A stretch of 64,000 nt of DNA from Candidatus Phycocordibacter aenigmaticus (GCA_045401115.1 CP174359.1:355247-419246); one strand, 5' to 3'. Shown: positions 5,316 to 50,740, numbered from the stretch's first letter. A program made the numbers and translations. Notes: generated by a model not told the origin, from the letters alone.

Positions 5316-5900
5316 TGTATGTGTGGTTGTGTTTTTCCCAAATGTTAAAAAACGCACAATGTATGCAACTATGATTCCAAACACTAGTGCGCTGATATAC
5401 GTTGCCATAATAGTTCCATATGAGTAAGGAACAGCTCGGAATACACCAAGAATAAACGCGCTTAACCATGAAGTCATGGATACTGCGCCTCCGATATAAA
5501 AAAAGTAACTACGCAGACGGAATTTTGGCACAGTAAGTAAATTTTTCTCTATATGTTTTTTAAGAAGAGGCATATGAAGTGTATGGATCAGGATGCCGTT
5601 CAGTATCAAAACACCGACAATAGTCATCTTTGAGAGAAATTTTGTTGAAGCAAGATATACAGCTTGGTTCATAAAGAAAAGTCCAATACCGCTGAGAACA
5701 ATAATAGTAAGTCCGATAGTTACCAAAAGACCCGCTGTATCTAAAAAGCGTATTTCATCTTTAGTAATGCGTGCGTCATACATTACTTTTGTGAACATAA
5801 CTGCTGAAAAAAGCGCTGTTCCAGCACCAAGCGCAAACCCGAATAGGTGGGCAATTATCAAAAGAGTTTTCGGTTCAATAAAACCAAGTAATGGAAACAT
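5313..5900 (-). CDS. Hypothetical integral membrane protein (5-6 TM)
   Basis: Hydrophobic throughout; no motif recognised. Confidence 0.45.
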   Translation of the reverse strand: MFPLLGFIEPKTLLIIAHLFGFALGAGTALFSAVMFTKVMYDARITKDEIRFLDTAGLLVTIGLTIIVLSGIGLFFMNQAVYLASTKFLSKMTIVGVLILNGILIHTLHMPLLKKHIEKNLLTVPKFRLRSYFFYIGGAVSMTSWLSAFILGVFRAVPYSYGTIMATYISALVFGIIVAYIVRFLTFGKNTTTHT

Positions 5901-11468: not shown

Positions 11469-11498
11469 TTAAACGGCTCACTCCAGTGAGCCGTTTAA
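11469..11498. terminator. Bidirectional terminator hairpin (member of the AAACGGCTCAC palindromic family) between convergent typA and corA
   Basis: TTAAACGGCTCAC-TCCA-GTGAGCCGTTTAAA. Confidence 0.65.
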
Positions 11499-11514
11499 AA
11501 TAGAGCAAGTATTT

Positions 11515-24264: not shown

Positions 24265-24296
24265 AATAAACGGCTCACCATAGTGAGCCGTTTATT
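24265..24296. terminator. Terminator hairpin after groEL (AAACGGCTCAC palindromic family)
   Basis: AATAAACGGCTCAC-CATA-GTGAGCCGTTTATT followed by T-run. Confidence 0.65.
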
Positions 24297-24336
24297 TTTA
24301 TTCATTTTTTTAATAGATGTTTGATATACTACAGAC

Positions 24337-26463: not shown

Positions 26464-26550
26464 CGGAGGAGTGGCTGAGTGGTCGAAGGCGCTCGCTTGG
26501 AAAGCGAGTGTGGGTTTACACCCACCGCAGGTTCGAATCCTGTCTCCTCC
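26464..26550 (+). tRNA. tRNA-Ser (anticodon GGA), class II with long variable arm
   Basis: GGAGGAG acceptor stem, anticodon loop TTGGAAA, T-arm GCAGG-TTCGAAT-CCTGT; CCA not encoded. Confidence 0.85.
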
Positions 26551-26736
26551 GCAGATGTCTAAGAAAATGCGAAAGCGTTTGATTAGAAAAAGCTGCGCAA
26601 GGAGAGAGAATTCGAACGGGAAGGGGGTCGGGGAAACGGGAGTTTCCCCGTGGCGGAATGAGGCGAAGCCGGACATAAAACCGAGGGGTTTTATGAGCGC
26701 AGCGAAGCGAGCAGTGAGATTCCTGTCTCCTCCGCA
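26551..26736 (+). mobile_element. tRNA-flanking structured element A, ending in a direct repeat of the tRNA-Ser 3' end (att-like)
   Basis: 18/19-nt copy of the tRNA 3' end at 26716-26736; GNRA hairpin 26563-26578; hairpins 26629-26650 and 26674-26695. Confidence 0.5.
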
Positions 26737-26963
26737 CTAAACAAAAGGATTGGCTTTGTGCTAGTGCTTTTGTTTTATATAAGGAGCGGCAGGATGAGAA
26801 GCAAGATGCTGGGAGCGTAAATTTTCTTGAGTGAGACGAGGTGGACAACTCTTGCTTGTGAACTCCTTTCTGACGGTGTATTTTAAAGACGGCTTGAACG
26901 GATTTCTAACCTTGTGCTACTCCTCGTGGATCGGTGTTGGTGGAGCAATAAAGCCGCTTTATT

Positions 26964-27584
26964 ATGAAAAAACGTTCAAAAAATCTCCGACACTATTTCT
27001 TAAAGGACATTAATCCTGTTATTCGTTTCTTGATAATCTCTGATACAGCGCTTGTTGGAGCAGCTGGATTACTTGCACCAATTTTTGCGCTTTTCGTCGA
27101 AGATTTCATTGTCGGCGGAAATGCTGCGGTAGCTGGTATAGCCGCGGGTGTGTATCTTTTTTCGAGAAGTATACTCCAAATCCCTATTGCACATCTTATG
27201 GATAAAATTTGCGGAGAAAGGGATGATTTTTGGTTCCTATTCTCTTTTTCAATCCTCTTTAGTGTTGTGCCACTTTTTTATCTTGTGATTCAAACTCCGC
27301 TTCAGCTGTATGGTGTCCAGTTTATTCTTGGTTTATTCACTGCGTTTACCTACCCTGCATTTATGGCAATTTTTACGCGCCATATTGACAAAGGAAGAGA
27401 AGGTACGGAGTGGGGTGTTTATTTCACTCTTACAGATGTTACAAGTGCTGCGCTCGCGGTTATCGGTGGTTATGTAGCGATATCGGCAGGATTTCCTGTT
27501 CTCATAACTATAGTCGTATCAATGTCTCTCCTTGGCGCTCTACTCTTACTCCCAATCCGACCATATATCAAACTAAAAGACTGA
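26964..27584 (+). CDS. 6-TM MFS-like membrane protein (half-size; possible truncated transporter)
   Basis: Resembles the C-terminal 6-TM half of MFS permeases; only 206 aa. Confidence 0.4.
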   Translation: MKKRSKNLRHYFLKDINPVIRFLIISDTALVGAAGLLAPIFALFVEDFIVGGNAAVAGIAAGVYLFSRSILQIPIAHLMDKICGERDDFWFLFSFSILFSVVPLFYLVIQTPLQLYGVQFILGLFTAFTYPAFMAIFTRHIDKGREGTEWGVYFTLTDVTSAALAVIGGYVAISAGFPVLITIVVSMSLLGALLLLPIRPYIKLKD

Positions 27585-27724
27585 TTACATTTTTGAATAA
27601 AAGTGCGAATATCATTCATATTGCACTGGATATTAGTTGCGTTTATTTTAAAACACGGTATTGTGTGGGCAGCTCGCTAGTTCCTCCATTATTTAGTTGG
27701 GAAAGAGATAGAGCAAGAAAGTTC

Positions 27725-28012
27725 ATGGGTAAGAAATTATTTGTCGGCAATGTGCCGTACCAGATTACTGAAGACGAACTTCGTCAGGCTTTTTCAGAAG
27801 CCGGAAACGTTGAATCAGTAGCAATTATCACCGATAAAATGACCGGTCGTCCTCGTGGCTTCGTGTTTGTTGAAATGTCAACAGACGAAGAAGCACAGAA
27901 AGCGATCGAGCTTTTGGACGGTAAAGATATGGGTGGGCGCACATTGAACGTCAACATTGCTAAGCCTCGTGAGGATAAACCTCAAGGTGATGGCTACAAC
28001 AGAGGATACTAA
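27725..28012 (+). CDS. RRM-type RNA-binding protein
   Basis: KLFVGNVPY (RNP2) and RGFVFVEM (RNP1) motifs. Confidence 0.85.
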   Translation: MGKKLFVGNVPYQITEDELRQAFSEAGNVESVAIITDKMTGRPRGFVFVEMSTDEEAQKAIELLDGKDMGGRTLNVNIAKPREDKPQGDGYNRGY

Positions 28013-35514: not shown

Positions 35515-35832
35515 ATGCAACATATAGAACAACTACAAGCAATCGAACACGCACCGGCACGTTTGTGTAACTTAGGTATTTATGGGGAACTTAAGGTGCA
35601 TGATGTAGAAAAAGCGGTAGAAGCTGGTGAAATAAGCTTCCATGAAGGGGTTGAGTTAATTGAAAAATTTGGTGATCTTTCTAGAGTAGAGGCTTCACGC
35701 GTTCTTGAAGATGCTCTTGAGTCTCCGAATGATGCTATAGCTGAACTTCTTTCTGAAAGCGCACCACCTCTAAATGACGGCACTAATGTGTTTTACAGTG
35801 CCTGTGAAGCAATCTTCCAGTCTGGAATGTAG
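35515..35832 (+). CDS. Hypothetical acidic protein
   Basis: ORF with downstream terminator; no recognised domain. Confidence 0.4.
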   Translation: MQHIEQLQAIEHAPARLCNLGIYGELKVHDVEKAVEAGEISFHEGVELIEKFGDLSRVEASRVLEDALESPNDAIAELLSESAPPLNDGTNVFYSACEAIFQSGM

Positions 35833-35850
35833 TTGTCTATACTCTCTTCC

Positions 35851-35883
35851 AAACAACCCGCTTACATGGCGGGTTGTTTTTAT
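35851..35883 (+). terminator. Rho-independent terminator
   Basis: AAACAACCCGC-TTACATG-GCGGGTTGTTTTT. Confidence 0.7.
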
Positions 35884-35884
35884 T

Positions 35885-36151
35885 GATGTCCGCGCTAGAA
35901 CGCTTCGCTATCTCACTGCTCCCCAGCACCAGTTTGAGACAAAATGAAAATGGTTCGAAAATCTTTGTATGGAAATGAAACGTATCATACCTACTCACGT
36001 CCGTTCTCAAACTGGAGCTGGGTGTGCTCATAGAACCCTCGGTTCTATGTCGGCCAAAGGCCTAACTCCTCCACGGGAAAACAACGTGTTTTCCCGACCC
36101 TTTTCCAGTTCGATTCCTAGCAAGGGCACGGAATATGCTTCGCATTTTTAT
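35885..36151 (-). mobile_element. tRNA-Arg-flanking structured element E (related to element A), with an inverted copy of the tRNA 3' end
   Basis: 21-bp inverted repeat 36108-36129 / 36154-36175 involving the tRNA 3' end; hairpins 36029-36049 and 36074-36096 homologous to those of element A. Confidence 0.45.
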
Positions 36152-36227
36152 TGGTGCCCTTGCTAGGAATCGAACCTAGATCTAGAACTTAGGAGGTTCT
36201 TGTTCTATCCATTGAACTACAAGGGCA
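36152..36227 (-). tRNA. tRNA-Arg (anticodon CCT), CCA encoded
   Basis: Reverse complement gives TGCCCTT acceptor, anticodon loop CTCCTAA, GGTTCGATTCC T-arm, ...GGGCACCA. Confidence 0.85.
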
Positions 36228-36325
36228 TAGTGCTTCACGATAATGCGCGTCTTTTGCAAGCAAGAAGTGAATAGAAGTCTTGCTTATATTCACGCCGACG
36301 CGCCGCAAAAGTGGAAGCGCATTAT

Positions 36326-36598
36326 CTTACCACGCGCCCGCGTATGAAAAGACACGCAGTGCTTTCATACAAGAGCCAAAGGTTTGTGGTATTCCCACTG
36401 GCTCATGAAATACACGCAGTGATTTCATACAAGGGTGAGTAAAGGAGCTCGCTTACATTTTTGTTGAGGCGATGGAAAAAGTAAAGCGTGTTGCCTTACC
36501 ACGCGCCCGCGTATGAAAAGACACGCAGTGCTTTCATACAAGAGCCAAAGGTTTGTGGTATTCCCACTGGCTCATGAAATACACGCAGTGATTTCATA
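36326..36598. repeat. Two ~104-bp perfect direct repeats (36326-36429 and 36495-36598, period 169 bp), each holding two palindromes with a conserved ACACGCAGTG centre
   Basis: Direct comparison; TATGAAA...TTTCATA and CATGAAAT...ATTTCATA sub-palindromes. Confidence 0.8.
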
Positions 36599-36673
36599 TA
36601 AGGCATCGGACGTATCAAGCCGCACGGGGGTAAATACCCCCTAAACGGCTCTCTATGTTGTACACTGTTTTAT

Positions 36674-37012
36674 ATGAATCAGCAAAAGCAAAAAAAAGAA
36701 CCAGGACCTTCTTTAGATGAAGTATATAAGCTTGCTAAGGAAAATAATCGCATGCTCAAAGCCATGCGTCGGGATGCTTTCATTGGTGCTATCTTAAAAT
36801 TTGTGTTCTGGATTGCGATACTTTTTGTTATTCCTTATATTTTATATACGGTGTATCTGCAACCTCATTTAGTCAATCTTCAAAATACATATAATCAGTT
36901 TAATCAAAAAGTAGAAGCAATTGACGGCGCCTCACAAGAACTTCAGCAAGTGCGTGAAAGCCTCCCTGAAGGCTTTAACTCCTTTCTTGAGCAGTTTGGT
37001 ATTGGTGGCTAG
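36674..37012 (+). CDS. Hypothetical membrane protein
   Basis: Single TM, coiled-coil C-terminus. Confidence 0.4.
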   Translation: MNQQKQKKEPGPSLDEVYKLAKENNRMLKAMRRDAFIGAILKFVFWIAILFVIPYILYTVYLQPHLVNLQNTYNQFNQKVEAIDGASQELQQVRESLPEGFNSFLEQFGIGG

Positions 37013-37188
37013 AAAGATGGATTTTTGAGTGGGTTTTGATAGAATGGGGGACATTGCTAAGATTGAATGGTCTTGGTGATTGCCCTGCCGAGGGAAGATG
37101 TACTTCGTGTTATCTTGCCTCGGATGCAGTAAAGTTCCTCTCGAGGTAAAGCTTCTTACGGTCGCTTTGCCTCGGCGTCGAGCTGAGA

Positions 37189-37284
37189 GAATACGCTTCC
37201 TTTTTTCCGGCACGTCAACAAAAATGTAAGCGAGCTTCCATTTTTGTCTTGCTTGGAAAAATCGCGTATTCTCGTTAACCTCTT
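37189..37284 (+). promoter_or_regulatory. Conserved upstream stem-loop/promoter region of tRNA-Phe (homologous region lies upstream of tRNA-Arg)
   Basis: 10-bp inverted repeat GAGAATACGC...GCGTATTCTC; shared CTTGCTTG-AAAA-CGCG-ATT-TCGT block with 36229-36330 (tRNA-Arg). Confidence 0.45.
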
Positions 37285-37358
37285 GCCGAGGTAGCTCAGG
37301 TGGTTAGAGCACTGGTCTGAAGAACCAGGTGTCGGCGGTTCGAGTCCGCCCCTCGGCA
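37285..37358 (+). tRNA. tRNA-Phe (anticodon GAA)
   Basis: GCCGAGGTAGCTCAGGTGGTTAGAGC..., anticodon loop CTGAAGA, GGTTCGAGTCCGCC T-arm. Confidence 0.9.
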
Positions 37359-37561
37359 CAAAAACAATGAAGCCCGATACGAGAGTATCGGGCGATTTGT
37401 TTTGTAGCTACGAGGGCGGACTCGAAAGACGGAGCCGTGGGTCCCCATTGTGCTGAGTTTCAGGCACAATGGGGCGGCGAGTCCGGGCAGGAGGTTGTTA
37501 TGAGTTTTTCTATCGAGAGATAGGTAAAAACGAATTACGAACCTGACGCCGAGTCCGCCCC
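37359..37561 (+). mobile_element. tRNA-Phe-flanking structured element B, ending in a 12-nt repeat of the tRNA T-loop/T-stem (CGAGTCCGCCCC)
   Basis: GNRA hairpin 37373-37392; hairpin 37443-37476; shared 16-mer CGAGTCCGGGCAGGAG 37478-37493; junction GACGCCGAGTCC 37545-37556. Confidence 0.45.
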
Positions 37562-37589
37562 ATAACTTAGACTGGTTTATACTATACAT

Positions 37590-38096
37590 ATGGAGAAAAA
37601 AGTTTCCGTGAGTTTGGTAGACCAGCCAAACTATTCCTATACGCTTACTGAGCCGGTAGGGAAGAATTTTGACCCTGAATTTACGCCACACCTTACCCCC
37701 AAAGAGATGCTTGAGTTGGGCGTATTTTGTGGTCAATATATGCGCGACGGTGCCAAGGAATTTCCTGACTCATGGTTTACAAAAGCAAAGTTTACTAAAG
37801 GAGACAAAGCGGATTGCTCACTCAACTATTTTAAGGTGAATGCAAGCCAACCGCTTAGCGCATGGCAGGAAAAAGGATGGATACATCCAGACGATCCACG
37901 TGGGTGGTTTCAGTGGTACTGTCGGTATTACATGGGAAGGCGTCATGAGGATGATGAACGACAAATAAAGCGATGGAAGGCGTTTAGACGCCATGCAGCA
38001 CAAGTGCGAAACAACTGCGAGAGAGGAGATATGGGTTGTCGGTCCAAACAGCGCCAGGCCCTTCTGCACTGGGCATATGATAGTCGAAAATTATAA
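37590..38096 (+). CDS. Conserved hypothetical protein (Trp/Cys-rich; GWFQWYCRYYMGRR motif)
   Basis: 168-aa ORF with terminator; family not identified with confidence. Confidence 0.45.
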   Translation: MEKKVSVSLVDQPNYSYTLTEPVGKNFDPEFTPHLTPKEMLELGVFCGQYMRDGAKEFPDSWFTKAKFTKGDKADCSLNYFKVNASQPLSAWQEKGWIHPDDPRGWFQWYCRYYMGRRHEDDERQIKRWKAFRRHAAQVRNNCERGDMGCRSKQRQALLHWAYDSRKL

Positions 38097-41595: not shown

Positions 41596-41629
41596 ATATA
41601 AACGGCTCACCCAGGTGAGCCGTTTATAT
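41596..41629. repeat. AAACGGCTCAC palindromic hairpin (family copy 3) in a divergent intergenic region
   Basis: ATATAAACGGCTCAC-CCAG-GTGAGCCGTTTATAT. Confidence 0.7.
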
Positions 41630-41738
41630 CTATGGCATGTCCGTCCTTTAATGAGGGAAGCGACGAATAAAGTTCTATCACTGCCTAAGCTATTGCAATT
41701 ATAGCTATTATGTTGCATAATAAATATAGATAAAATAT

Positions 41739-42830: not shown

Positions 42831-44003
42831 TTATTCAGCGAGTGATTGCGAACCTCGCGCGTTCAGTTCTTTTTCAGTATCTGCTTTGCCGGCGCTGTGG
42901 CGCAAGTATGCGGCGATACCTATCATAATTGCATTATCTCCGGTTAGTCCGCTTTCAGGATAATGAAGCGTTATGTTTGGATGGTGAGAAACCAGTTCCT
43001 CTAATCCTTCACGGATATGTGTATTTGCCGCTACGCCGCCTCCGACCACGAGTGTTTTGGGATGTTGTATTTCAATGGCGCGTTTTGTTTTGTGCACCAA
43101 CACATCACGCGCCGCGTCTTCAAATTCGCGAGCAATATTTTCTTTATCTTCTTGTGAAAGTTCTCCCATGTCACGCACTAAGTAGAGTACAGCCGTTTTC
43201 AGACCTGAAAACGATACATCGCAACTTTCTTCGTGTAACATCGGGCGGGGAAGTGTAATAGGGTTTTCACCACCGCGCTCGCGTGCTTTTGTAGCATATG
43301 CAGATATTTCCGGCCCACCAGGATACTCAAGACCTAAGAGGCGCGCCACTTTATCAAACGCTTCACCTACGGCGTCATCGCGCGTTTGACCCACTAAATT
43401 ATATGCAAACCACTCTTTCATGGTAATAAGTTCAGTGTGTCCACCGGAAATAAGTAGTGCCAGTAATGGCAGTGCAGTGTCAGTAATATGATAGGTGTTT
43501 GGGGTGCGGAGGTCTTTTTTGAGTAGAGCAGAGGTAATGTGTCCTTCCATATGGTCAATGCCGGTCAGGGGAATATCCCAGGCAGCGCTGAGTGCTTGCG
43601 CAAAGGTAACACCGGTCCACAGTGCGGGTTCCAACCCAGGTCCGTTGGTTACAGCAATAAGGTCAATATCAGGTTTCTCGGTCGTTTCAAGGAAATCATT
43701 CACCGCTTTTTTAAATGATTCGTCACGGAGTGGTTCAAGCACATCGTCCGTTATTGTGTTGCAAGAGTCTTGTTTAAGTAGGCCTGCCTGGCGCAATGTT
43801 TCTGTGGTTAGGGGCACCAAATTTTGTTGGTGTTCACGTTTCGCAAGGGAAGGGTACACGCCGCCATACTCAGAGTGCTTAGATGCCTGAGAGTACAAGG
43901 AATCACCCAGAAGGGTATATTGGGATGATTCAATATTACCTGTCGCCTCAAGTACGGTTATTGCGGTCTCGTCACAACTGGTTTCAATGGCTAAAATTTT
44001 CAT
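42831..44003 (-). CDS. tsaD: tRNA N6-adenosine threonylcarbamoyltransferase TsaD (Kae1/Qri7 family)
   Basis: MKILAIETSCDETAI N-terminus, HMEGH metal-binding motif. Confidence 0.9.
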   Translation of the reverse strand: MKILAIETSCDETAITVLEATGNIESSQYTLLGDSLYSQASKHSEYGGVYPSLAKREHQQNLVPLTTETLRQAGLLKQDSCNTITDDVLEPLRDESFKKAVNDFLETTEKPDIDLIAVTNGPGLEPALWTGVTFAQALSAAWDIPLTGIDHMEGHITSALLKKDLRTPNTYHITDTALPLLALLISGGHTELITMKEWFAYNLVGQTRDDAVGEAFDKVARLLGLEYPGGPEISAYATKARERGGENPITLPRPMLHEESCDVSFSGLKTAVLYLVRDMGELSQEDKENIAREFEDAARDVLVHKTKRAIEIQHPKTLVVGGGVAANTHIREGLEELVSHHPNITLHYPESGLTGDNAIMIGIAAYLRHSAGKADTEKELNARGSQSLAE

Positions 44004-44010
44004 ATACAGA

Positions 44011-44213
44011 TGTTGTGGGCGATACAGGACTCGGCGTCAGGTTCCTAAGCTCATTCATCGCTCCGCTCTTCATTCACTAAGGACCTCCTGCCCGGCCTCG
44101 CCGACAAGCACTCGCTCTCGCTCGTCTTGTATACCGGCTCCGGCTTTCTCGTCCTGTGTCGCTGCTACAAACCTAAGTTGCATCATGCATGCGCATACTG
44201 CTCTAAGGTTTTG
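44011..44213 (-). mobile_element. tRNA-Val-flanking structured element D, ending (44011-44030) in a 20/21-nt direct repeat of the tRNA 3' end
   Basis: TGTGGGCGATACAGGACTCG present at 44011-44030 and 44212-44231; GACGCCGAGTCC junction and CCGGGCAGGAG motif on the minus strand. Confidence 0.5.
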
Positions 44214-44287
44214 TGGGCGATACAGGACTCGAACCTGTGACCTCGTCAACGTCAATGACGCGCTCTAGCCAACTGAGCTAATCGCCC
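44214..44287 (-). tRNA. tRNA-Val (anticodon GAC)
   Basis: Reverse complement gives GGGCGATTAGCTCAGTTGGCTAGAGC, anticodon loop TTGACGT, GGTTCGAGTCCTGT T-arm. Confidence 0.9.
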
Positions 44288-44327: not shown

Positions 44328-44927
44328 ATGCAATTTGGCCCCACCACTATTGTGCTCTATCCCACCGATACGCTTTATGGGCTGGGTGTGGACGCTACGA
44401 GTCCTGAAGCAATAACACGCCTGCAGCATTTAAAAGGGAGAGATGATAAAAAACCCATCTCAATTGTCGTATCCGATATAGCAATGATGAATCAGTATGT
44501 TGAGGTAACTCCGCTTGCACGAAAACTTGCTGAAAAATTTTTACCCGGAAAAATTACGTTGGTGTTAAAAGCAAAGACGCGTCCAGAGAATAGAGATGAT
44601 ACACCACTTGCCTCTGGAGTGGTAAGTCAGGAGGGGACTGTGGGGATACGTATCCCGGATCGTCCAGAAGCGCTTGAACTAGTACGAGATTTGGGGCGGC
44701 CGCTCACCGCAACGAGCGCGAATGTATCAGGTAAAGCAACCGCGCGGACGCCGGAAAAGATTCTCCTCCAGTTTAACGAAAAAGCGTCCATGATCACTGA
44801 TGTAGTGAGTATCGGAAAACTTCCAATAAGTGAACCTTCCACTGTTATTGATGCGCGTGGAGAGAAACCAATAATTCTTCGTGAGGGCGCTATTCTTACC
44901 GCGACTATTAACGCAGCGGTTTTATAG
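44328..44927 (+). CDS. tsaC: L-threonylcarbamoyladenylate synthase TsaC/YrdC
   Basis: YPTDTLYGLG signature, SANVSG. Confidence 0.85.
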   Translation: MQFGPTTIVLYPTDTLYGLGVDATSPEAITRLQHLKGRDDKKPISIVVSDIAMMNQYVEVTPLARKLAEKFLPGKITLVLKAKTRPENRDDTPLASGVVSQEGTVGIRIPDRPEALELVRDLGRPLTATSANVSGKATARTPEKILLQFNEKASMITDVVSIGKLPISEPSTVIDARGEKPIILREGAILTATINAAVL

Positions 44928-49726: not shown

Positions 49727-49803
49727 AAAAGTGACCAAAAGGACCTTTAAAATATAGCATTTTGAGCAGAAAATGCTAGGATTTCCTGAGTGAGTTTCTC
49801 ATT

Positions 49804-49887
49804 GGAGGAGTGCCCGGAATTGGTAACGGACCGCTCTCGAAAAGCGGCGCGGGAAACCGCTTGTGGGTTCGAGTCCCATCTCCTCCG
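49804..49887 (+). tRNA. tRNA-Ser (anticodon CGA), class II
   Basis: GGAGGAG acceptor, 3-bp D stem, anticodon loop CTCGAAA, variable arm, GTGGG-TTCGAGT-CCCAT T-arm. Confidence 0.8.
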
Positions 49888-50083
49888 CAAATGTCTAAGA
49901 AGACGCGAGAGCGTCTGATTAGCAACAATTGCGAGAAGGAGATGAGGCGAGAAAGACGGAGGCCGCGAAGCCGTGACGATAGTACACGTGGCCGAGTCCG
50001 GGCAGGAGCCACTTAGTATTTTGTGAGCAAAGCGAGACAAAATAGTTAGTGAGTTGACGCCGAGTCCCATCTCCTCCGCAAAT
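49888..50083 (+). mobile_element. tRNA-Ser(CGA)-flanking structured element C, ending in a 23-nt direct repeat of the tRNA 3' end
   Basis: CGAGTCCCATCTCCTCCGCAAAT at 49871-49893 and 50061-50083; GNRA hairpin 49901-49916; 16-mer CGAGTCCGGGCAGGAG 49993-50008. Confidence 0.5.
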
Positions 50084-50395
50084 TGTTATACTGAAAAAAT
50101 GAAATCGTTAGTGAAATATAGTCCTGGAATAATTTTGAGTATTTGGCCCTTTTTTGTCATAAACGAACTAGGGATTGGAGTCGTTGCTCTGGTTCTTATA
50201 AATTTTTGGATAGGAATTGGTGTTGGGGAATATATTGCTTCACATGAGTGAAGTAGAAAAAATGAAACCTAGATTTAATTACAACTCCACCAACTACAGT
50301 TTGCTGTAAAAGTGAGTGAAAGGGGACATCTCCATAAAACCAAAATTTACTAACACACCTCCACATAGAAAGTGTAAATGTCGAAAGCGGTAGTA

Positions 50396-50632: not shown

Positions 50633-50710
50633 GTTTTTCTTGGTTATCTACTATAATTTCATAGTACCATTCTCGTTGATATTGTGTAGCGTCACACCTA
50701 TAAACGGCTC

Positions 50711-50740
50711 AATGCATTGAGCCGTTTATTACACACCCTT
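50711..50740. repeat. AAACGGCTCA palindromic hairpin (family copy 4) in a divergent intergenic region
   Basis: ATAAACGGCTCA-ATGCAT-TGAGCCGTTTAT. Confidence 0.7.

Follow-up and report, generated by a model that had tools for sequence, protein, structure and literature searches.

Transfer RNA (tRNA) and transfer-messenger RNA (tmRNA) genes are classic landing sites of integrating DNA. For bacteria of the Candidate Phyla Radiation (CPR), the closest paper that we found describes group I introns at position 35/36 of tRNAs, which are a different thing (PMC13011429). Here we analyze a 64,000-nucleotide stretch of Candidatus Phycocordibacter aenigmaticus (GCA_045401115.1, CP174359.1:355247-419246; hereafter the window), in which a short sequence, element C, directly follows the tRNA-Ser(CGA) gene. 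A first-pass annotation of this DNA had described element C as a structured RNA that opens with a hairpin module shared with another element, A, and ends with a copy of the tRNA 3' end. We find that element C belongs to a structured family that is well supported, covaries strongly and numbers more than 100 copies, and that an internal guide in each element pairs with the terminal tRNA copy. Judging from Rfam 15 and the searchable literature, the family is apparently undescribed: we found no description of it in the literature, and Rfam 15 at its gathering scores returned only tRNAs from the window, with more permissive searches (E of at most 10 over 49780-50120 and of at most 5 over 35800-37650) returning tRNA and noise only.

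Element C spans 49889-50083 on the plus strand, as do all of its parts and its partner or target, tRNA-Ser(CGA) (49804-49888, 3' end at 49887/8; called by ARAGORN, 48 bits with the Rfam tRNA model). The 23-nt sequence CGAGTCCCATCTCCTCCGCAAAT has only two exact occurrences in the window. The first, DR1 (first direct repeat copy, 49870-49892), comprises tRNA positions C56 to G73 (49870-49887, numbered from the Rfam alignment) plus CAAAT; the second, DR2 (50061-50083), copies it exactly and forms the end of the element. None of 100 dinucleotide shuffles contained a match, even with up to three mismatches allowed. Element C does end in a 23-nt exact copy of the tRNA 3' end and its flank. The annotation missed that this copy pairs with an internal guide to form a closing helix, P1, of which it provides the 3' strand. 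The guide, the 5' strand of P1 (49925-49948), is complementary, with imperfections, to the 3' strands of the T-stem and acceptor and to the trailer of tRNA-Ser, and pairs with 50064-50086 in the minimum free energy (MFE) fold; P1 also covaries family-wide.

Between the tRNA and the guide lies T1 (49889-49924), the "5' module" of the annotation, a hairpin directly 3' of the tRNA with an inner stem-loop at 49901-49916. T1 of element C lacks a U-tract, and a terminator scan detected no terminator there. P1 encloses two hairpins, P2 and P3, which are joined by conserved single-stranded junctions and were placed from the fold together with the family alignment. In element C, the guide is followed by the conserved junction GAAAGACGGA (49951-49960; at least 90% conserved among 92 distinct copies), which includes the 5' half of P2a (GAC), and then by P2 (49961-49993), a variable hairpin with a GCGAAGC mini-hairpin at its tip. 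Motif comparison and family conservation mark the next segment, GAGTCCGGGCAGGAG (49994-50008), as the 3' half of P2a (GTC) followed by junction J2/3. The P3 hairpin (AGCCACTTAG...TTAGTGAGTT, 50007-50055) carries the distal loop motif GAGCAAAGCGAG, and a last conserved junction, TTGACGC (50054-50060; family consensus CUGACGC), leads into the terminal copy.

The same anatomy recurs across the family, whose members are ~150 to 200 nt long: a T1 hairpin, a three-way junction with ~35 near-invariant bases, and the closing helix P1. The conserved junction motifs are GAAAGnCGGA, GAGnCCGGGCAGGAG and CUGACGCC; the ~35 junction bases are at least 90% conserved in the 92 distinct copies, which come from across CPR classes. 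MFE folds of element C and of two further window copies, B and D, agree in architecture (z = -6.5 for C, -9.2 for B and -3.1 for D). In the model alignment, 85.7% of cells are paired, compared with 68.8% after shuffling and ~37% with slid partners, and double-change cells number 466, compared with 160 after shuffling. As this alignment was fitted to the model, we re-extracted key pairs with plain regular expressions. Extracted in this way, the center pair of P2a is GC in 28 copies, AU in 22, CG in 21, UA in one and mismatched in one, while the initial P1 pairs alternate between C-G/U-A and a tandem G.A variant. In P3, 98% of cells are paired, with both-side changes in six of seven pairs, and the P1 pair at T-loop position 59 covaries as well (CG 35, AU 27, UA 15, GC 5). 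The stem ends are GGAyUCG / CGArUCC, and the left flank is constant (...TCGAA). Covariation across the family, a check that the first-pass annotation had suggested, is strong.

How far the 5' module itself contributes can be seen from the comparison of elements A and C. After the tRNA, the two resemble each other over the initial 43 nt (in A, from 26553), and the homology extends to 68 nt at 82% identity when the tRNA T-loop and 3' end are taken in, so a common 5' module was correctly recognized. The hairpins are AGACGC-GAGA-GCGTCT in C (49901-49916) and AAATGC-GAAA-GCGTTT in A (26566-26581); in C, a G-C pair takes the place of an A-T pair of A (a double change) and a C-G pair that of a T.G wobble, with a GNRA loop in both, in agreement with the compensatory changes that had been reported. 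As structural evidence the A/C pair alone is weak, and the statistics come from the family-wide analysis. The changes in this hairpin are real, but T1 is the most variable module of the family and the conserved part is the three-way junction downstream. A T1 like that of A and C is specific to tRNA-Ser copies, in which it begins AATGAT or AATGTC... and which occur in other genomes too; this common start accounts for the shared MSKK/MIRK "peptide."

The MSKK peptide could be encoded by both copies, and the annotation had argued that selection acts on the fold instead. Our data bear this out: no frame is conserved, and covariation across the family is strong. A gene for a short basic peptide (MSKK...) is in fact scarcely credible as an explanation. 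Elements A and C both open with ATG TCT AAG AA, in open reading frames (ORFs) of 61 and 41 codons, but an ATG lies within 17 nt of the tRNA end in only 14 of 54 unique copies, ORF lengths range from 1 to 70 codons, and the conserved GAAAG motif, where reached, is read in frames 0, 1 and 2 in four, two and three cases, respectively. Furthermore, there is no ribosome-binding site, the ATG standing 3 nt after the tRNA, and length differences in the variable hairpins are not multiples of three. Conservation at the codon level in a larger set, named by the annotation as the sign that would speak for the peptide, is accordingly absent.

The claim of selection on RNA structure holds in one respect: a single-strand fold is selected. 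That the molecule is RNA is less settled, given the near-absence of G.U in covarying core pairs. Summed over whole elements, the MFE is -5636 kcal/mol for the sense strand and -5256 kcal/mol for the antisense strand; the variable hairpins contain 81 G.U pairs in the sense orientation and 42 in the antisense, and C-GNA-G triloops number 76 and 13, respectively. The covarying core helices, on the other hand, contain 8 G.U and 9 A.C among ~1,165 Watson-Crick cells, a scarcity of G.U that is unusual for RNA and would suit single-stranded DNA (ssDNA). Overall, the interpretation offered in the first-pass annotation is partly supported. Two other ideas about the strand were rejected. An antisense RNA with a 5' guide, like a single guide RNA (sgRNA) or omega-RNA, was discarded: on the antisense strand, no -10 box stands at a fixed place ahead of the terminal copy, and folding is better in the sense orientation. 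Likewise, GCGAAGC was ruled out as an antisense UUCG tetraloop, the motif being a triloop on either strand.

We recovered the family with a covariance model, R1, built from 14 copies. R1 found 104 copies in 80 CPR genome or metagenome (groundwater) loci, designated here by L numbers, in addition to 4 in the window. A two-motif scan of a genome collection gave mostly chance matches in high-GC genomes, and the genuine ones were in CPR only (Saccharibacteria, Paceibacteria, Parcubacteria and Spechtbacterales assemblies); a three-motif metagenome scan yielded 68 groundwater and sediment contigs. The Saccharibacteria metagenome-assembled genomes L003 and L088 are among the carriers of the element. 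The link to tRNA-type genes is close: 77 of the 108 copies start 15 to 90 nt after a tRNA on the same strand, with 30 anticodons represented, and the distance is typically ~40 nt, the length of T1. Among the apparent solo copies, five stand behind tmRNA genes and one behind a tRNA that a group I intron splits. Of the 156 tRNAs with enough flanking sequence, 70 are followed, and one is preceded, by a direct repeat of 12 nt or more of their 3' end.

The tmRNA-associated elements are in L157, L181, L117, L166 and L152, and their terminal copy matches the tmRNA 3' end (CGATTCCCGCCATCTCCAC). The split tRNA, which ARAGORN missed, is in L128 (4401-4639); it has a Phe-like 3' end and an internal group I intron scoring 80.8 bits in Rfam, with the element downstream. 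In L088/L184 and L126 (Saccharibacteria-type), elements stand after a conserved, apparently structured sequence ending GGTTCGAGC/GGTTCTAGC. Neither Rfam nor ARAGORN identifies this sequence as tRNA or tmRNA, and it may be an unrecognized RNA gene.

The terminal copy comprises tRNA positions 56 to 73 (18 nt) and matches at all 18 in 34 of 50 unique pairs, with the left border of the repeat always at position 55/56. Past the discriminator, identity mostly runs for 1 to 3 nt, which is the chance level, since N73-CA(A) is found at almost every CPR tRNA gene, occupied or not. (Across all loci, C is the nucleotide after the discriminator in over 90% of tRNA genes, and CAA, not an encoded CCA, is the most frequent sequence there.) We also considered CCA after the terminal copy as a mark of origin from mature tRNA, but the difference was not significant (7/34 versus 4/34). 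The guide is complementary to the element's own tRNA over the 3' half of the T-loop and the 3' strands of the T-stem and, in part, the acceptor, and is less perfect than the terminal copy, usually extending over 8 to 15 nt counted from C56. T1 begins 1 to 3 nt after the discriminator and is locus-specific in sequence. In most copies it is an intrinsic terminator (A-tract, GC stem, U-tract), and many terminal copies are followed by a second terminator. One tRNA-Glu element (L114, 1864-2281, minus strand) carries a ~250-nt insertion in P2; its repeat spans the whole tRNA terminator, indicating that the duplicated segment can reach well past the tRNA.

Copies are polymorphic in both number and site. 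In a comparison between lineages, tRNA-Glu is empty in the window, L032, L138 and L170 and filled in L029 and L114, while tRNA-Ser(CGA) is filled in the window, L032, L138, L143 and L029 and empty in L114. Tandem arrays are present in L124, L158, L029, L127 and L114. In L167, a whole unit of 330 nt is duplicated 2.4 kb away at 99% identity; its left border is the tRNA-Tyr discriminator, and it extends to a hairpin that lies 65 nt beyond the terminal copy. The second site has no tRNA, but GTTCGAACC lies ~23 nt upstream. L168 has two further dispersed copies. The coordinates of the near-identical whole-unit duplicates at non-tRNA sites are 5536-5696 and 7986-8146 in L167 and 301-465 and 2473-2637 in L168, and a T-loop-like GTTCRAAYC stands 20 to 24 nt upstream of the left border in L167 and L168b, with a weaker motif at L168a. 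In an ARS1360-like lineage, copies at tRNA-Leu, Ser, Gly, Phe and Thr have a ~111-nt core with identities of up to 98%, whereas T1, guide, terminal copy and downstream flank are ~50% identical and unalignable. Finally, unrelated core types occupy one guide/copy scaffold at other tRNAs: a 36-nt mini-core, a "type 3" core and the A-type core. The polymorphism, the arrays, the dispersed copies near T-loop-like motifs, the burst in one lineage and the several core types together point to turnover.

We tentatively read the family as gene-less, non-autonomous selfish elements aimed at tRNA-type 3' ends by base pairing, a reading that we put forward at somewhat less than even confidence. In such a scheme, an enzyme with its gene elsewhere would act on the folded sense strand, as RNA or ssDNA. 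Through base pairing, the guide would recognize the target from T-loop to 3' end, placing the element just after the tRNA, and the 18-nt copy would stand for the target site within the element, filling the role of an att site and displayed as a folded stem. Spread would proceed by whole-unit duplication, tandem duplication and transfer of cores between resident sites. The anatomy, the fold, the tRNA-specific P1, the distribution and the polymorphism of copy number and site are shown by the data; movement by pairing of the guide, an enzyme acting in trans and the form of any intermediate are inferred.

A number of our observations weigh against this reading. No enzyme or transposition intermediate was identified. 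The dispersed copies of L167 and L168 keep their old terminal copy, and the new site is not duplicated, which contradicts simple target-site duplication. In the ARS1360-like lineage, T1, guide and copy differ around near-identical cores, so simple whole-unit transposition cannot explain the burst. Direct repeats of at least 15 nt number 61 and inverted repeats of at least 15 nt only 8, meaning that the copy is exact and the guide decays; the terminal copy itself could be under selection. The conservation of ~35 core bases across CPR classes implies strong constraint. The filled and empty sites were compared between lineages, as stated above, and the occupied element C locus is shared with genomes whose ftsZ is ~70% identical. 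More precisely, the segment from tRNA-Glu/tRNA-Ser(CGA) to ftsZ is syntenic with L032 and L143, with ftsZ only ~70% identical, and proteins of the window are 50 to 82% identical to those of related loci; this synteny places element C at an old, shared locus and, with the protein identities, the window in a CPR bacterium. At least some copies are thus old and stably inherited, which fits a host function and a tolerated parasite equally well. No model explains the intervening terminator, the core-only identity in one lineage, or the combination of perfect copy and imperfect guide.

Several of the same features would be expected of a host-beneficial RNA that accompanies the tRNA, the main rival explanation, which we consider serious but less likely. 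Here, a read-through transcript of the tRNA or tmRNA gene would fold into the three-way junction such that P1 mimics the coaxial minihelix of acceptor and T-stem in the matching tRNA, with an identical 3' strand that stops at the discriminator. Enzymes acting on tRNA, for instance RNase P, RNase Z or the CCA-adding enzyme, would recognize the RNA in a 3'-processing, quality-control, decoy or regulatory role, and concerted evolution would homogenize the cores. This would fit the invariable position of the copies, immediately 3' of the tRNA and in its orientation, the better folding of the sense strand (by MFE, hairpin G.U pairs and C-GNA-G loops), the near-invariant bases across CPR classes, and the occupied Ser(CGA) locus that is syntenic at ~70% ftsZ identity. 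It would also fit a terminal copy that stops at the discriminator and stays exact while the guide drifts, service to tmRNA, and, for a small genome, the high occupancy seen in the window, where only one tRNA in six lacks an element. Against it, most copies have a canonical terminator, T1, between tRNA and core, with no space for a separate promoter; many tRNAs of the same genomes lack an element, and occupancy depends on lineage. Tandem and dispersed copies, some of them at non-tRNA sites, and unrelated core types within one scaffold are also hard to reconcile with it, as is the near-absence of G.U from core helices. P1 is often only 8 to 12 bp and does not reproduce acceptor identity pairs: a tRNA-Ala copy has A-U in place of G3.U70. 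An alternative starting from the same helix, with a small chance of being correct judging from the sequence, is a new ribozyme class that would cut or join at the T-loop boundary beside P1, for instance to release or attach the 18-nt 3' fragment of the tRNA, as either a mobile ribozyme or a supplier of spare 3' ends to tRNAs that T-loop nucleases have damaged; it overlaps both the selfish-element and the host-RNA explanations. The three-way junction, the conserved purine-rich strands (AAA, CGGGCAGG, CUGACGC), the substrate-like, programmable helix adjoining the junction and the repeat border always at 55/56 are consistent with a ribozyme, and the order of CUGACGC, a helix and then GAAA recalls, by our own comparison, the hammerhead core. 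However, Rfam 15 gave no ribozyme match at E up to 10, and G.U is scarce in the core helices. We rejected the hammerhead on model scores and on its essential positions, the family having C for A9, A for G12 and, as the first pair of P2, G-C at 15.1-16.1. We also rejected a group I intron, as the Intron_gpI model that scores the L128 intron at 80.8 bits does not match the elements, which lie 3' of an intact tRNA. A resemblance to the conserved region of RNase P RNA (GAAAG...UCCGGGC) has no support from any Rfam match.

The direct repeat from the T-loop to just past the tRNA 3' end, together with tmRNA among the targets, also raises the possibility of leftovers of integrase-borne elements: attL/attR pairs after internal deletion, resembling cis-mobilizable elements (CIMEs), left by phages or islands that had inserted into the T-loop of tRNA and tmRNA genes with the tRNA 3' end in their attP, and now reduced to the two repeats and arm sequences. 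Such an identity block is expected of T-loop-class tyrosine integrases. The family is nevertheless constant in size (150 to 200 nt), and pattern scans of viral contigs gave no matches. Pfam searches of ~50 window ORFs, comprising most of the long ones, found no integrase, reverse transcriptase (RT) or transposase, and all-against-all clustering of the ORFs of the 80 loci gave housekeeping families only, with no protein family, integrases included, enriched. The interior covaries as single-strand helices, which is not expected of protein-binding arm DNA, and an internal inverted copy, the guide, is foreign to a standard att site. In addition, one core serves at least 30 tRNA species and is near-identical at five tRNAs of one genome, exceeding what one fixed attP would do. 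Covariation and the multi-tRNA distribution largely refute the integrase-leftover explanation, and we regard it as very improbable. The boldest reading, to which we give the same small chance as to the ribozyme class, is a programmable, gene-less RNA or ssDNA element that would read the universal T-loop and the tRNA-specific 3' strand and act chemically at 55/56. It might be a new mobile ribozyme class homing to tRNA and tmRNA genes. Alternatively, it might provide exact spare 3' ends (positions 56 to 73) to rebuild tRNAs cut in the T-loop by toxins, with every tRNA gene having its own matched cartridge.

Returning to the window, five of its six tRNA genes carry an element of the family, tRNA-Glu alone being without one. 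Four of these copies match R1, and the fifth, at tRNA-Arg, was identified by eye. Element B (37360-37563, plus strand) follows tRNA-Phe (37285-37359), scores 105 bits with R1 and has a terminal copy decayed to 12 nt. Element D (44008-44212, minus strand) follows tRNA-Val(GAC) (44213-44287, minus strand), scores 128 bits and has a 21-nt exact repeat. Element A (26553-26740, plus strand) follows tRNA-Ser(GGA) (26465-26552) and scores 49 bits, with a divergent A-type core and a T1 like that of C. The fifth, an A-type element missed by R1 (35895-36151, minus strand), follows tRNA-Arg(CCT) (36152-36226, minus strand). It opens with a 22-nt perfect complement of the tRNA 3' end, has an A-like core with a ~115-nt hairpin insertion, and ends in a degenerate terminal copy. 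Elements A, B, C and D can be aligned over their full length. From end to end, element C is homologous to B and D, and to A at a greater distance; B, C and D have the motifs GAAAGnCGGAG, GGCGAGTCCGGGCAGGAG and CTGACGCCGAGTCC in common, and the window cores are mutually only ~64% identical.

Some neighbors of these elements are also worth recording. Just upstream of tRNA-Arg(CCT), at 36279-36603, a 156-nt unit occurs twice in tandem (87% identity, 169-nt spacing); each unit contains paired ATGAAA...TTTCATA hairpins and has no Rfam match. The tRNA-Val gene and element D lie between tsaD (42831-44003), whose start codon is 5 nt beyond the terminal copy of element D, and a divergent Sua5/TsaC gene (44328-44927), and both of these genes encode tRNA t6A enzymes. 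An ORF ~700 nt downstream of element A (27410-28012) encodes a protein with a bacterial RRM_1 RNA-recognition motif (E = 2.8e-22). Elsewhere, terminator-like hairpins at 11469-11504, 24266-24301, 41598-41633 and 50700-50735 have one stem (ATAAACGGCTCA...TGAGCCGTTTAT) and different loops; they could be a dispersed repeat or a preferred terminator design.

If the family is mobile, it would represent a minimal gene-less parasite whose choice of target is written as a guide against the most conserved feature of tRNA-type genes. It would provide a new route to programmable insertion and account for some of the non-coding sequence that the highly reduced genomes of CPR bacteria contain. If it is instead a host RNA, many tRNAs and tmRNA in a major bacterial radiation would each be accompanied by an RNA of their own, shaped after their 3' half, pointing to an unknown step of tRNA maturation, surveillance or repair. 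Either way, a covarying structured family of more than 100 copies is new to RNA databases, and annotators gain a reason for the repeated tRNA 3' ends in CPR assemblies.

Among known systems, integrative elements of tRNA and tmRNA genes and CIMEs are similar in inserting at the 3' end of the gene, in having a repeat that runs from the T-loop to past the end and in leaving the tRNA intact; in element C, too, a direct repeat of the tRNA 3' part flanks the insert. The family differs from them in being 150 to 200 nt long and integrase-less, in having a covarying three-way junction as its interior, in adding an inverted copy of the target (the guide) and in using one core for at least 30 tRNA species. 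Minihelix mimics (the tRNA-like domain of tmRNA, plant mitochondrial t-elements, mascRNA and viral tRNA-like structures) share the acceptor/T 3' strand and an end at the discriminator, and by analogy P1 might be a substrate for RNase P, RNase Z or the CCA-adding enzyme. In contrast to these mimics, P1 runs into the T-loop bases as a plain duplex with no T-loop, each copy of the family mimics a different tRNA, and acceptor identity pairs are lost. The primer-binding site of long terminal repeat (LTR) elements is likewise an internal segment that can pair with ~18 nt at the 3' end of one particular tRNA and extends into its T-loop. The family, however, has no complement to CCA, its pairing usually ends before the final acceptor bases, it lacks RT and LTRs, and it also contains a sense copy of the tRNA segment. 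Group I introns resemble the family as selfish structured RNAs with a conserved core, variable hairpins and a guide to flanking host sequence, and they too are tolerated in streamlined CPR genomes, but the family is outside the mature tRNA, is far smaller, and is without omega-G or U.G splice-site features.

The integron attC site and the attP(+) site of CTX phage share with the family the order of an upstream target copy, an inverted copy, a spacer and a direct copy, which produces a stem that reproduces the target duplex. In these sites, as in the family, structure is kept over sequence and G.U(T) pairs are scarce. In contrast to attC and attP(+), the family has no link to IntI or Xer and no GTTRRRY core, its stem is tRNA-specific, its "spacer" is a highly conserved junction, and its ssDNA form is putative; the R''/R' boxes of attC are not present, the stem ending instead in GGAyUCG / CGArUCC, and no IntI was found in the window ORFs scanned. 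The ends of IS200/IS605 elements and palindrome-associated transposable elements (PATEs) offer a further parallel in their small, gene-less hairpin derivatives, a guide that finds the target by base pairing, and a trans-acting enzyme, which we propose for the present family. The family departs from IS200/IS605 and PATEs in pairing over 8 to 20 nt as opposed to ~4 nt and in carrying its target copy at the far end. Its ends are not conserved subterminal hairpins, and no TnpA or TnpB was found nearby, with no TnpA seen in the 64 kb or in related loci. The family has two internal hairpins (P2 and P3) and a constant left flank (...TCGAA), together with an 18-nt copy of its target, whereas PATEs insert 3' of a fixed 4-5-nt target that is not repeated.

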